Shown piece by piece: positions 53,758 to 61,221 of a stretch of 64,000 nucleotides of DNA. A program made the translations under genes and the position numbers. How positions within the stretch are numbered: position 1 is the first letter of the stretch; each line of letters begins with the position of its first letter. Under the pieces are notes generated by a model. It made no database searches. It was given only the letters and a program-made list of their open reading frames with translations, and was not told the DNA's origin. The stretch lies in the sequence record OP172791; one strand, 5' to 3'. This DNA is from Escherichia phage ECO340P1.

Positions 53758-53786
53758 AGTCTACAGGATATTTGTTGTTTTGTCAA
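53758..53786 (-). promoter_or_regulatory. sigma70-like promoter (CTATTGACAA-N17-TAGACT)
   Basis: Minus-strand -35 at 53781-53786 within the recurring motif CTATTGACAA; -10 TAGACT at 53758-53763. Confidence 0.45.
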
Positions 53787-53814
53787 TAGAAAAATTAAAA
53801 AATATTAAATATTT

Positions 53815-55380
53815 TTAATTCGACAGGTTTTGTGCTGAAGGATCTAGAGCAGAAACAGTATCAGACGTTCCAGTTCCCGCTGTAGCTAAACCATCTCCTG
53901 ATCGTGAAGTTTTGTCAGGCATATAGTTATCCATGAATTCAAAGAATTTCTCTTTATTGGCAACAATATCATCAGGGATGCGATATTCAAAACCAATTTT
54001 TTCAAGAAACTCGTTAATAACTTCTGGGGTTAAAGGTATCGCACCAGAGGCTACCAACTGCTGAATAGCTTTAGCATTTACTTCAATATCAGGATCACCC
54101 ATTTCACCACTGACAAACTTAGGCATATCTTCATCAGAAAGGAAGATATTGTTTAGTCGTAGTGTTTGAGGGATCAGTTGAGAGTTTATAGCTTCTACAA
54201 CAATATCTACATCTCGCTCAATAAAATGAGACAATAGTGTTTGTTTGTTGTCAGAAAGCGCAAAACTTCCTGCATCACCATCACCCATAATCAACACACC
54301 CGCACCAAAGCGGTTATAAATATCTAGCTTGCGTTGTTTGATTAGTGCTTGAGTGTCAAACTGTTTACCCGTGCCATCAACACCTTGGAATACAAGATCG
54401 TATTGACGCATCACTGTGCCTTCATAAACGTCTGAAGGCAATACCATGTAGGCTTGCTCACCAGAGTGCAGGTTAGCGATGTTGGCTTGGAGAACTCGAA
54501 GAGATTGTGCTTCATCCCCCGCAGGATCTAAAGATGCCCTGTTTAGAATGTCACTTGGAACCTTAAGAACTGGCATACCGCCTAAATCTTTAGATACCCC
54601 AATAACCTCAAATTCCTGAATAAGAGATTTTTCACGCCAGCTACGATATACAGCTAAAAGCGGACTAACTCCTAATGGGTTATTCTCTGTAATGTTGCTA
54701 CCAACAAATAAAACTTTACTGAAAGGGATTTCTTTAATACCCGTTTCTAAAGTTGTATTACCTGGAGCTAACATCGTATTGGTGATATTCTGGTTAACAG
54801 ATAGAATAGAACGTCCGTCTGCCGAATATGTAAAAGGTTGAGCCATGTGAAGAGTGTCTTGTGGTCTAAAAGCCAGTTTGGTTAATCGCCAATACCCAAA
54901 GTAAGGACTTTTAGGATCTTCATCCAACTCATAAACTTTCTCTGCGAATGCAAAACCATATTGCTTATATGTCAAAAGTGATCTAACATATTGACGTAGA
55001 GGGGCTTGCATATTGCGCAACATGTAATCAATAAACTTAGCAGCTTTTCTTGACTTTGCCGAGTTTACATTGTATTTTATCTTGAAATCAAAGAATGCTC
55101 TATCTACAAAGATATATGTAGCGTCAAGAGCAGTAGCTACATCAGGGTCTTCACCCATCTCTTTAAAAGTGCGAATACATTCTGGGAAACGAGTCTCATA
55201 AGGTTGCATGAAATTCGTAAATGCTTTGATTGAGTTTAATCCGATCGTTCCTATTTCAGGTGACAGGAGTAACGTTTTCTCTTTCTCTGCCTCTTTTGTT
55301 GGAGAGAGAGCAGCTTTATTTGCAGCACCTTTGTCCCAGTATTCTGACTTTTTAGTGTACGTTCTTTTTCCTGTTGACAC
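53815..55380 (-). CDS. portal protein
   Basis: 521 aa, between terminase and head maturation genes. Confidence 0.65.
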   Translation of the reverse strand: MSTGKRTYTKKSEYWDKGAANKAALSPTKEAEKEKTLLLSPEIGTIGLNSIKAFTNFMQPYETRFPECIRTFKEMGEDPDVATALDATYIFVDRAFFDFKIKYNVNSAKSRKAAKFIDYMLRNMQAPLRQYVRSLLTYKQYGFAFAEKVYELDEDPKSPYFGYWRLTKLAFRPQDTLHMAQPFTYSADGRSILSVNQNITNTMLAPGNTTLETGIKEIPFSKVLFVGSNITENNPLGVSPLLAVYRSWREKSLIQEFEVIGVSKDLGGMPVLKVPSDILNRASLDPAGDEAQSLRVLQANIANLHSGEQAYMVLPSDVYEGTVMRQYDLVFQGVDGTGKQFDTQALIKQRKLDIYNRFGAGVLIMGDGDAGSFALSDNKQTLLSHFIERDVDIVVEAINSQLIPQTLRLNNIFLSDEDMPKFVSGEMGDPDIEVNAKAIQQLVASGAIPLTPEVINEFLEKIGFEYRIPDDIVANKEKFFEFMDNYMPDKTSRSGDGLATAGTGTSDTVSALDPSAQNLSN

Positions 55381-55481
55381 TTGTTCCTCCAGTCAGGTAT
55401 AAAATCGTTAAGGCAAGGCTGTATTATATACAACCTCACCTATCTAGTTATAATACACTTTAAAGTGACTTTTGTCAACAA

Positions 55482-57557
55482 TTATCTTTTACGGACACTA
55501 TACGGTTGGTGAAATCCGCTGTTCATTCTACTGTATCCTGTAGGAGCATTTGTTGTTGTAGGGATAGCTACTGCTTTGAAAGTATTCTCTTTTGACAGAG
55601 TATTAAAACAAGAGGCAGCAGCATCGGGAATGTCATCTTTAATAGTGGCTGTAGATCTTTCACCATTGAAAGATTCCAATTCTTTATAAAAGTGGGTTAA
55701 AGTTTCCACATTAGGGAAAGAATCTTCAACAATATAAACAAAACCGTTTTGACACGCACTACTAAAAGGCATAAAACGCTGAAGCTTTTTCTTGTTACCT
55801 GGCATAGCATCTGGTTTAACAACAAAACCTTCTAGAATAAGTTTCTTTGCAGACTCTGTGTATTCTATTGTCCCAGCACCAGATGGGTCTTTAGGAAGCA
55901 CTACTGTAACTTCTGGTCCATCAATCTTACATTGATTTAGAATCAGGTTATCCCTTTCCCCAGGTAGTCTTCGAAACCTTCCGAAAATTTTACTTTTCTC
56001 ATCCACAGCATCATAATCATAGTCGCCAAAGATGTAGATATTACCATCTTGGTCTTTACCCATTTTGACAGATGTTGTATAGTCTGGATAACGGTAAGTT
56101 TCTGTAGGAACTGAAACAGCTTTATCCCATGCTCGCATTAGTTTAAGATTGTTAGGAACATCTTTATAAGATATTTTATGTAACCATTCACGTTGAAAGA
56201 AAGATTCTTTCTGAATACGTGCAAACCAACAACCGTCCAGAAGCTGTGCTCTTTTAATCGCTGTTTGTGATTTAAGCTGTGCTAAGTAATTAGGGTTAAG
56301 CCTAATGAGTTCTGGGTTATCAAATATTGTCCCACCAATAAATACGAAAGTTTGTGGTTCAATAACAACTGTCTCCCCTGTATTAGGGTTTTCCATGAAA
56401 CAGTTTTCTGGATATTTTTCTTTCAGTTCTTCAGGTGTGTCAGCAAAAACAGGTTCATCGTTAACAATGATGAAATATTTTTGTTTACCACACATATCTT
56501 CTCTAGGATAACCACCCTCATCAAGATAAGGTAACACCCAATTCAAAACCCAACTATCTGCGTCAGGGTTACATGTGCACAACATGAAACTTGTTTCTGA
56601 CTCTGAACGCATACGTCCCAGAAGATAGAGCATTTCATATTGTGTGAAGTGGGTTAACTCGTCAAAACCTACCATTGAATACTGTGTACCCTGATGGTTT
56701 GTTTCTGCTGTTACGTTATCATTTTCCAAATGGTCAAATTTGAGGGTTCCACCACCAGTGGCTTCAAAAATGATATCCATTGTACTTTCTTTTACGTGCG
56801 GTTGTAAAGGAAGATACAAACGTTTTGCTTCTGTAAACAGACCACCTGGTTTACGGTGAGCAGTGGTGTTCTTACGGAAAAGTATTCCACCAAACAAAGG
56901 GTCTTTGTAGGCGTATTTTAAAGCTTTCAGCAATAGCAGACGAGACTTGCCGCTATTCCCAGTAACGAAGCAGTGATCGCCACGTCTAAAGACAATATAG
57001 CTGCTTGGAGTCTCAAAACAATATTTCTTATCATCTGTTGAAATAACCTCGTGTATTTTTAAGTAAGTGCTCTTTTTACCAGGTATGTTAAAAGGAACAC
57101 GTTTACCGAATGGATTTTCTACGTAACCTTGCAGTGGTTTTCCTATTTGCTGTAATGCAATAAGATCTCCTACAAGAATCTCGAAATGTTTCTTTGATTT
57201 CTTTTTCTTATAGAATACAAAACGGTGTTCCATACTAAGTTCTTGGAACAATCCTACACCATTTGTTATTCTGTATAGGTTATCTCCATTTAAATCGTAT
57301 TCTACAAAATAAGGTGTTACCAATTCTAAACGCTTATTCTTAGGATTGTATTGGTAAATATCCTCTCCCGAATATTCACTAATCTGCCTCCAACCATCTT
57401 TTGTAAGATATTCTGTTTCAGCAGAAACACATCCAGCGGCACCACCATAAATCATAACTTCTGGCATTAAATCCATTGCAAGAGTCTGTTTACCTGGTTG
57501 AGCCTTTACTTCAATATCTACTCCAGCTAAACTACCTGCTGCCTTTTTCTTTGCCAC
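55482..57557 (-). CDS. terL: terminase large subunit, interrupted by a mini-intein
   Basis: Walker B-like MVGFDE and C-terminal nuclease-like region; P-loop GGAAG / SGKS is split by a 159-aa insertion starting with Cys and ending with Asn. Confidence 0.75.
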   Translation of the reverse strand: MAKKKAAGSLAGVDIEVKAQPGKQTLAMDLMPEVMIYGGAAGCVSAETEYLTKDGWRQISEYSGEDIYQYNPKNKRLELVTPYFVEYDLNGDNLYRITNGVGLFQELSMEHRFVFYKKKKSKKHFEILVGDLIALQQIGKPLQGYVENPFGKRVPFNIPGKKSTYLKIHEVISTDDKKYCFETPSSYIVFRRGDHCFVTGNSGKSRLLLLKALKYAYKDPLFGGILFRKNTTAHRKPGGLFTEAKRLYLPLQPHVKESTMDIIFEATGGGTLKFDHLENDNVTAETNHQGTQYSMVGFDELTHFTQYEMLYLLGRMRSESETSFMLCTCNPDADSWVLNWVLPYLDEGGYPREDMCGKQKYFIIVNDEPVFADTPEELKEKYPENCFMENPNTGETVVIEPQTFVFIGGTIFDNPELIRLNPNYLAQLKSQTAIKRAQLLDGCWFARIQKESFFQREWLHKISYKDVPNNLKLMRAWDKAVSVPTETYRYPDYTTSVKMGKDQDGNIYIFGDYDYDAVDEKSKIFGRFRRLPGERDNLILNQCKIDGPEVTVVLPKDPSGAGTIEYTESAKKLILEGFVVKPDAMPGNKKKLQRFMPFSSACQNGFVYIVEDSFPNVETLTHFYKELESFNGERSTATIKDDIPDAAASCFNTLSKENTFKAVAIPTTTNAPTGYSRMNSGFHQPYSVRKR
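56955..57431 (-). mobile_element. mini-intein (Hint domain) inserted in the terminase P-loop
   Basis: Residues C43-N201: block A CVSAETEYLTKDGW, block B LSMEHRFVF, terminal Asn then Ser; excision rebuilds GGAAGSGKS. Confidence 0.6.
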
Positions 57558-57566
57558 ATTCCCTCC

Positions 57567-60830: not shown

Positions 60831-60905
60831 TGGTGTCTTTACAAGGAATCGAACCTTGACTAAGAGTTTAGAAGACTCCTGTGCTATCCATTACACCATA
60901 AAGAC
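60831..60905 (-). tRNA. tRNA-Arg (anticodon TCT)
   Basis: Acceptor GTCTTTA/TAAAGAC, anticodon arm GGAGT-CTTCTAA-ACTCT, T-arm CAAGG-TTCGATT-CCTTG, CCA encoded. Confidence 0.75.
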
Positions 60906-60907
60906 GT

Positions 60908-60982
60908 TGGTGGCCCTGACTGGTTTCGATCCAGCTACCTATCGGTTATGAGCCGACAGCTCTCCCATTGAGCTACAGGGCC
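60908..60982 (-). tRNA. tRNA with CAT anticodon, Ile2 (lysidine)-like or Met
   Basis: GGCCCTG-TA-GCTCAATGGGAGAGC-T-GTCGG-CTCATAA-CCGAT-AGGTA-GCTGG-ATCGAAA-CCAGT-CAGGGCC-A-CCA; acceptor, loop and T-stem resemble E. coli tRNA-Ile2 as recalled. Confidence 0.6.
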
Positions 60983-61191
60983 ATAAATGTGGTAACAGAG
61001 ACGCTGACGATTGTAGAGAACCGCTACATTCTCTAAGACCAAGCCCAACTTTCAGCGTAAAAGTTCTTGAGCCGAGACTATTCCTTTTCCTCTTTGGTAG
61101 CTAACCTCTGAAGAAGTAGTCTCTAACACTACCGCAGTGCAAGCCCCTCTTAACAAAAGTCAACGACCCTGTTACCACACTTGATGAACGT

Positions 61192-61221
61192 ATCCTAACA
61201 TATGAAGGATACGTTTGTCAA
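61192..61221 (-). promoter_or_regulatory. sigma70-like promoter (CTATTGACAA-N18-TAGGAT) at the head of the tRNA cluster
   Basis: Minus-strand -35 at 61216-61221, -10-like TAGGAT at 61192-61197, followed by a ~200-nt leader before the first tRNA. Confidence 0.45.

Follow-up and report, generated by a model that had tools for sequence, protein, structure and literature searches.

Four candidate sigma-70-type promoters in the tRNA array and before the head genes of a Phapecoctavirus

Organisation of the locus

The stretch of DNA analysed was a 64,000-nucleotide (nt) piece of Escherichia phage ECO340P1 (record OP172791), referred to here as the window, and the element in question was a 10-mer, TTGTCAATAG, that recurs in it. 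Each copy, which is CTATTGACAA when read on the minus strand, overlaps the -35 element of one of four promoter-like sites, P1 to P4. The sites lay in a 7.8-kb region in which every gene was on the minus strand. The region contained, from upstream to downstream, small open reading frames (ORFs), an array of tRNA genes and structured spacers, further small ORFs with the spanin genes, and the genes of the large terminase (TerL), the portal and the head proteins (Table 1). P1, P2 and P3 served the array and P4 preceded the head genes, and all four carried the marks of host sigma-70 promoters.

By comparison of the 7.8-kb region, the window phage was assigned to the genus Phapecoctavirus, Escherichia coli myophages of the rV5/phAPEC8-like kind. 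Identity over the region was 99.4% with Escherichia phages dw-ec and Mt1B1_P17 and 98% or higher with phAPEC8, ESCO13 and many more. The genus belongs to the subfamily Stephanstirmvirinae, which comprises E. coli myophages of ~150 kb; its kin are phi92 and, more remotely, rV5.

Anatomy of the four sites

The 10-mer was present in exactly four copies in the 64 kb, all on the plus strand, against a mean of 0.16 in dinucleotide-preserving shuffles, and none of 100 shuffles reached four. When one mismatch was allowed, 10 occurrences were found against 7.9 expected, with no excess and no wider degenerate family, so that only the exact copies stand out. The recurrence reported in a preliminary description of the window was confirmed, with two coordinates corrected by one base (59661 and 61215 are correct). 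The same held for its assignment of each copy to a -35 element with a -10-like hexamer 17-18 nt downstream on the minus strand, and for the placement of the copies before tRNA sub-units or the head-gene block; all four were located in non-coding gaps with same-strand genes downstream. The genome-wide motif search that it had proposed was run on the full genome of Mt1B1_P17, the nearest one with an annotation, and gave five copies, namely these four and one likewise in a gap, upstream of the early gene gp028.

The -35 hexamer matched TTGACA at all six positions in P1-P4. Because six of the ten bases are the sigma-70 -35 consensus, the 10-mer is mostly a standard -35 signal. The -10 hexamers TAGGAT, TAGATT and TAGACT each matched TATAAT at four of six positions and TATAGT matched at five, and all had the form TAnnnT. 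The spacers of P1-P4 (18, 18, 18 and 17 nt) were within the sigma-70 range of 17 +/- 1 bp. An extended -10 element, TGn, was present in P1 and P2 and absent from P3 and P4, and the UP-like tract was an A-tract at -45..-39 in P1-P3 and a T-tract in P4. Each promoter would be composed of an UP-like A/T tract at about -45..-39, a variable triplet (CTA in the window), TTGACA with an A after it, a spacer of 17-18 nt, and TAnnnT.

Transcription starts were predicted by transferring the geometry of the T7 A2 promoter, in which the start is 8 nt past the last base of the -10 hexamer. The predicted start of P1 was ~61184, 2-3 nt ahead of the closing helix of a structured RNA, S1, and that of P2 was ~60597-60598, 1-2 nt ahead of the tRNA-Ser(TGA)-like gene beginning at 60596. 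P3 was predicted to start at ~59630-59631, ~5 nt ahead of tRNA-Gly (59626), and P4 at ~53750, with a leader of ~29 nt to the ATG at 53721.

Conservation among relatives

The promoter elements were compared with those of phiWec181, ~81% identical to the window phage overall, and of phi92 and FKP3, both ~74% identical. In the alignments with these three phages, TTGACAA and the -10 hexamer were kept, together with TGT where present, whereas the flanks diverged (orthologous 10-mers in Table 1). In P2, TTGACAA and TGTTAGATT were unchanged in phiWec181 and phi92, and CTA was replaced by GTG or CTAC. In P3, TTGACAA and TA(T/G)AGT were unchanged in phiWec181, phi92 and FKP3, while the prefix was CTA, CTC or CAC and the phi92 flanks were unalignable. 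The orthologues of P4 read GTATTGACAAA, and the interval from the -35 element to the start codon was near-invariant across phiWec181, phi92, FKP3 and the IMG/VR orthologues, although the coding DNA was only ~75% identical. A scan of IMG/VR for TTGACA-N17-TAGACTAAGA gave 64 matches, mostly in unrelated contigs and probably by chance, and only three were P4 orthologues. Fixed -35 and -10 elements amid drifting flanks are, as read from these alignments, the footprint of a promoter.

The promoter set of the genome

A pseudo-genome was composed of Mt1B1_P17 1-36000, the window and Mt1B1_P17 ~99150-149000, less ~0.5 kb in terC and the last 2.2 kb, and its genes were called by a crude longest-ORF heuristic. 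In this near-complete pseudo-genome, TTGACA with TAnnnT 16-18 nt downstream occurred at 65 exact sites, which were strongly enriched in the intergenic ~8% of the genome. Once sites with TTGACT and three window promoters checked by hand were included, 37 sigma-70-type sites were found in this non-coding DNA. Of these 37 promoters, 18-26 had A at any given position of -45..-39, and at six of these seven positions the number was 22-26. T was found at -37 in 20 promoters; A followed the hexamer in 16, and TGn preceded the -10 element in 16. Since the tract, TTGACA and the flank features are common to this set, P1-P4 share the general promoter architecture of the genome. The UP-like element raised in the preliminary description is therefore plausible, but it would be the A/T-rich tract at -45..-39 common to most promoters of the genome and no part of the 10-mer. 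Many further promoters of the genome had TTGACA(A) without CTA, including two comparators in the window, one in the TerL-portal gap and one past the array terminator (Table 1).

Outside the window, ~12 early-gene cassettes on the minus strand of Mt1B1_P17 (~2500-12300) consisted of an A-tract, N3, TTGACA, N16, TAAnnT and CACRTAGGGCGG-loop-CCGCC. As judged from this arrangement, each short early mRNA would open with a GC-rich 5' hairpin. The cassettes are a promoter/leader class distinct from P1-P4 and far more stereotyped. The window itself starts (1-360) inside a TerC-like membrane protein gene, and its offset to Mt1B1_P17 shifts by ~1.4 kb between the window start and the region of P1-P4, which indicates an indel between the two phages within window positions 1-53600.

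Table 1. Features of the 7.8-kb region, with the orthologous 10-mers in related phages.
Feature	Position	Strand	Description
P1	61192-61232	-	Tract aaataa; 10-mer 61224-61215; -35 TTGACA 61221-61216; 18-nt spacer; extended -10 TGT+TAGGAT 61200-61192
P2	60605-60645	-	A-tract ttaaaaaa; 10-mer 60637-60628; -35 60634-60629; 18-nt spacer; extended -10 TGT+TAGATT 60613-60605
P3	59638-59678	-	A-tract aataaaa; 10-mer 59670-59661; -35 59667-59662; 18-nt spacer; -10 TATAGT 59643-59638; no TGT
P4	53758-53806	-	T/A-rich tract; 10-mer 53789-53780; -35 53786-53781; 17-nt spacer; -10 TAGACT 53763-53758; no TGT
P1 orthologues			phiWec181 GTATTGACAA, reading GTATTGACAAG...TGTTAAGAT; phi92, no equivalent promoter there; FKP3 not covered
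P2 orthologues			phiWec181 GGTGTTGACAA; phi92 CTACTTGACAA; FKP3 not covered
P3 orthologues			phiWec181 CTATTGACAA; phi92 CTCTTGACAA; FKP3 CACTTGACAA
P4 orthologues			phiWec181, phi92, FKP3 and IMG/VR orthologues, all GTATTGACAA
Comparator promoter, TerL-portal gap	55450-55478	-	Sigma-70 type without CTA; ttgTTGACAAaagtcactttaaagtgTATTAT, ttgTTGACAA-17-TATTAT; 11/12 consensus matches
Comparator promoter, past array terminator	58874-58902	-	Sigma-70 type without CTA; aacTTGACT-17-TGT+TAAGAT
P1 repeat	61181-61221	-	TTGACAAACGTATCCT-N9-AGGATACGTTCATCAA; 14/16 positions paired; spans -35 to beyond -10
P2 repeat	60607-60626	-	Not conserved in relatives
P3 repeat	59653-59671	-	ACTATTG-N5-CAATAGT; includes CTA; in phi92 another repeat surrounds the -35
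P4 repeat	53740-53775	-	ATATCC-N18-GGATAT, bracketing -10; in invariant spacer and leader
Small ORFs	61960-61229	-	Upstream end of region
tRNA array	61185-58920	-	12 tRNA or tRNA-like genes and structured spacers
S1	60983-61185	-	203-nt structured non-tRNA RNA; first product of the P1 unit; minimum free energy -76.8 kcal/mol, z -6.9
tRNA-Met(CAT)	60908-60982	-	Directly after S1
tRNA-Arg	60831-60905	-	After tRNA-Met(CAT)
Rest of array	58920-60596	-	Served by P2 and P3; tRNA-like Ser(TGA), Ser(GCT), Tyr-like, Asn, Thr, Gly, Gln, Pro, Ile, Met and structured spacers
Intrinsic terminator	58944-58926	-	Closes tRNA array
Small ORFs and spanins		-	Between array terminator and TerL
TerL	57557-55482	-	Large terminase
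Portal	55380-53815	-	
Prohead serine protease	53721-53242	-	XkdF-like; first gene after P4; 159 amino acids; Pfam PF14550, E = 1.4e-11
Scaffold-like, decoration and major capsid genes		-	Downstream of prohead protease

The tRNA array and neighbouring genes

Besides S1, structured spacers were found on the minus strand at 60644-60830, 60300-60415, 59455-59552 and 59700-59940. Their folding was compared with that of shuffled sequences, and S1, S2, S3 and S6 gave z values of -6.9, -4.1, -4.6 and -5.5, respectively, with long closing helices. Among the 76 predicted pairs of S1, eight two-sided and seven one-sided changes in phiWec181 stayed paired and six changes broke a pair. The spacer RNAs were as conserved in phiWec181 as the tRNAs, and the adjacent ORF was more diverged (~70% identical by eye). 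No Rfam family was found for them at E<1, and a scan of IMG/VR for the 5' arm of S1 gave one contig only. From fold and conservation, the spacers are probably stable phage non-coding RNAs (ncRNAs) co-transcribed with the tRNAs. The spacers at 60016-60105 and 59139-59216 on the minus strand had T-arm-like GGTTCGAATCC motifs and acceptor-like closing stems and were not called as tRNA by ARAGORN or Rfam; by these motifs they look like degenerate tRNA genes.

Several gene labels in public records were also considered. The 98-amino-acid ORF at 58852-58556 on the minus strand is labelled as the sigma factor RpoS in SKA64 and, in another record, as terminase small subunit. It had no Pfam match, only a PHROG of unknown function and no significant PDB match, and the searches support neither label. 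The RefSeq label of the prohead protease ORF, DNA methyltransferase, conflicts with its XkdF-like match. TerL contained an insertion of ~158 amino acids (56950-57432, minus strand) that splits the Walker A motif (GGAAG/C...GN/SGKS, with the slashes at the junctions) and carried the intein-like blocks CVSAETEYLTKDG, SMEH and HCFVTGN/S. No intein match was obtained in Pfam or PDB sequence searches, and on these motifs alone the insertion is described as intein-like but unconfirmed. The TerL gene of Klebsiella phage FKP3 was instead interrupted by an HNH endonuclease gene.

Inverted repeats over the promoters

An inverted repeat overlapped each of the four promoters (Table 1). In the P1 repeat, pairing was kept in the phiWec181 alignment through two double compensatory changes and one change from A-T to G-T. 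A search with the P1 region in the phage collection returned two lineages only (63 records at >=99% identity and 6 at ~81%). The arms of the P4 repeat showed no variation among the three IMG/VR orthologues of P4.

Interpretation and alternative explanations

The anatomy, placement, genome context and conservation of P1-P4 point to four strong promoters of the host sigma-70 type, which are very probably read by the unmodified E. coli RNA polymerase; from this, their activity, their start sites, the form of the polymerase and the dosage rationale given below would follow. P1, P2 and P3 would be nested inside a single co-directional tRNA/ncRNA array as internal promoters, with the one terminator at 58926-58944. 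No terminator-like site was found between them on the minus strand, and because of this nesting up to three promoters would contribute transcripts of the distal tRNAs. P4, directly past the portal stop codon, would re-initiate transcription and raise the output of the head proteins made in high copy (protease, scaffold, decoration and capsid). By this dosage argument, head proteins needed in hundreds of copies would be lifted relative to terminase and portal.

Several points weigh against this interpretation. A generic promoter scan of the window gave 34 sites against 33.9 expected and was uninformative in such AT-rich DNA, for which reason exact-consensus sites, location and conservation were used instead. 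No transcription-start or RNA-seq study of phAPEC8, phi92 or the Stephanstirmvirinae was found in the literature searched, and we therefore infer the activity of P1-P4 from the features above. About 70% of the phage genes are uncharacterised, and a polymerase modifier that has gone unrecognised may be conceivable among them. CTA occupied -38..-36 in seven of the 37 promoters against a background of 0.013 (binomial P ~4e-7, or ~3e-5 after correction for 64 triplets); this enrichment exceeds chance within the genome and may hold some subclass signal. The spacers were 17-18 nt in all seven CTA promoters, compared with 16 nt in the early cassettes of Mt1B1_P17. Perfect stems of at least 7 bp were present in four of the seven CTA promoters and in two of the 30 others, with a null value of ~0.047 per promoter, and the compensatory substitutions at P1 hint, at the level of sequence, at an added function.

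These stems lead to a possible but unlikely second purpose of the repeats, compatible with the sigma-70 identity of the promoters. In read-through transcripts the repeats would double as RNA hairpins, either as 3' stabilisers or for RNase III-type processing that would split the upstream mRNA from the tRNA/ncRNA units; or else they would be operators of dimeric regulators that time expression. The 16-nt arms of P1 with their compensatory changes in phiWec181, the position of the P4 repeat in an invariant spacer and leader, the inclusion of CTA in the P3 repeat, the separate repeat of phi92 and the excess of stems favor such a role. However, the arms shared no common half-site and hence did not define a single operator, the P2 repeat was not conserved, the invariance of P4 offered no covariation test and P1 was informative in two lineages only. 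In addition, none of the hairpins preceded a U-run, and the stem enrichment was spotted post hoc.

A stronger form of this proposal, in which the CTA promoters are a promoter-plus-palindrome subclass and the same 30-45 bp are both a sigma-70 promoter and a conserved hairpin or operator, is distinctly doubtful. If it were true, the palindromes would partition and time the tRNA/ncRNA array and the head-gene block, and the compensatory changes of P1 and the invariant spacer and leader of P4 would be the signature of the module.

It is very doubtful that the recurrence is instead a historical trace, left by cassettes duplicated during assembly of the tRNA array, with at least one copy perhaps an inactive look-alike. 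P2 and P3 were alike at 20 of 23 bases (AAAACTATTGACAAC...), and P1, P2 and P3 formed an 18-nt repeat family, which is consistent with cassette duplication or with convergent selection on the A-tract and -35 element. However, the likeness of P1-P3 stopped at the promoter elements, and the -35 and -10 elements were separately conserved at each site across genera, which argues for ongoing function.

The preliminary description had taken the extended -35 context as the mark of one promoter class and had suggested a phage-modified polymerase. That the CTA-prefixed promoters form a distinct class, with an extended -35 element recognized by a host polymerase that the phage has modified or by a factor that it encodes, is extremely improbable: the CTA enrichment, the spacer lengths and a possible Srd-like anti-sigma protein in the relative rV5 (Kropinski et al. 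2013, PMC3606486) speak for it, but orthologous prefixes changed to GTA, CTC, GTG and CAC while TTGACAA and the -10 hexamer stayed fixed, the 10-mer is one base away from the host-polymerase promoter T7 A2, the seven CTA promoters serve genes as unlike as early ORFs (Mt1B1_P17) and tRNAs and head genes (window), and neither a polymerase gene nor a sigma factor gene came to light. A conserved non-sigma-70 motif, as expected of a phage-specific class such as the middle or late promoters of T4 or those of single-subunit RNA polymerases, did not emerge, since beyond TTGACA(A) only CTA was common and it varied between orthologues. The 295-feature RefSeq record of Mt1B1_P17, in which most genes are uncharacterised, annotates no RNA polymerase, activator or credible sigma factor of the phage. 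The promoter reading of the preliminary description was supported, and its suggestions of a special class and of a modified polymerase were not.

With P1-P4 as ordinary sigma-70 promoters, the shared CTA..A flank would be a lineage idiosyncrasy, due to common ancestry or a mild context preference, and not a separate recognition element. Promoter features at the four sites were absent from the public records of Mt1B1_P17, dw-ec, ASO2A, SKA64, ESCO13 and phi92. P1-P4 are thus unannotated, new members of a thoroughly known kind and raise no new question of polymerase redirection. They indicate nested tRNA/ncRNA units transcribed from host-type promoters and a strong promoter of their own for the abundant head proteins. 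Phages of the genus Phapecoctavirus are widely isolated for therapeutic use against E. coli pathogens of birds and humans. Their transcription maps would gain from the annotation of P1-P4 and the ~33 similar sites, a benefit of small practical value. The structured RNAs and promoter palindromes are likelier to repay experiments than the 10-mer itself.

Comparison with known systems

The tRNA cluster of phage T4 includes the stable non-tRNA RNAs species 1 and 2, or rnaC and rnaD. The present array resembles it in that structured, conserved RNAs (here S1-S3 and S6) occur alongside phage tRNAs; no sequence or Rfam relationship between them was found.

Strong E. coli promoters, rrnB P1 among them, have an UP element that is contacted by the C-terminal domain of the polymerase alpha subunit, with a proximal subsite at about -46 to -38 (Estrem/Gourse). 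P1-P3 and most of the 37 promoters were A-rich at -45..-39, a likeness of composition and position. However, P4 has a T-tract, and CTA sits between the tract and the -35 element, outside the UP consensus.

In rV5, 33 promoters of the sigma-70 consensus, 11 of them with an extended -10 element, were predicted with a genome-wide spread, and its authors argued that the polymerase may remain unmodified (Kropinski et al. 2013, PMC3606486). As a related large E. coli myophage, rV5 resembles the window phage in having promoters also in late regions and no sign of a phage-specific class. It belongs to another subfamily, Vequintavirinae, and its promoters are computational predictions, so the likeness is one of overall pattern and not site by site.

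A close match was found in phage T7, whose A1, A2 and A3 promoters are recognized by the E. coli RNA polymerase and have starts annotated from experiment in the T7 reference record. They lie together at the end of the genome and direct the synthesis of early mRNAs, whereas P1-P4, which are predicted only, lie in a tRNA/ncRNA array and before head genes. A1 reads GTATTGACT and A3 reads GGTTGACAAC. A2 reads gaaaaacagGTATTGACAACatgaagtaacatgcagTAAGATacaaatcG and is composed of an A-rich tract upstream, the extended -35 element GTATTGACAAC, an 18-nt spacer and the -10 hexamer TAAGAT, with the start 8 nt past it. In spacer length and -10 variants the window sites likewise agree with it. P1-P4 matched the extended -35 element of A2 at nine of ten bases, and the orthologues GTATTGACAA in phiWec181, phi92 and FKP3 matched it at all ten.

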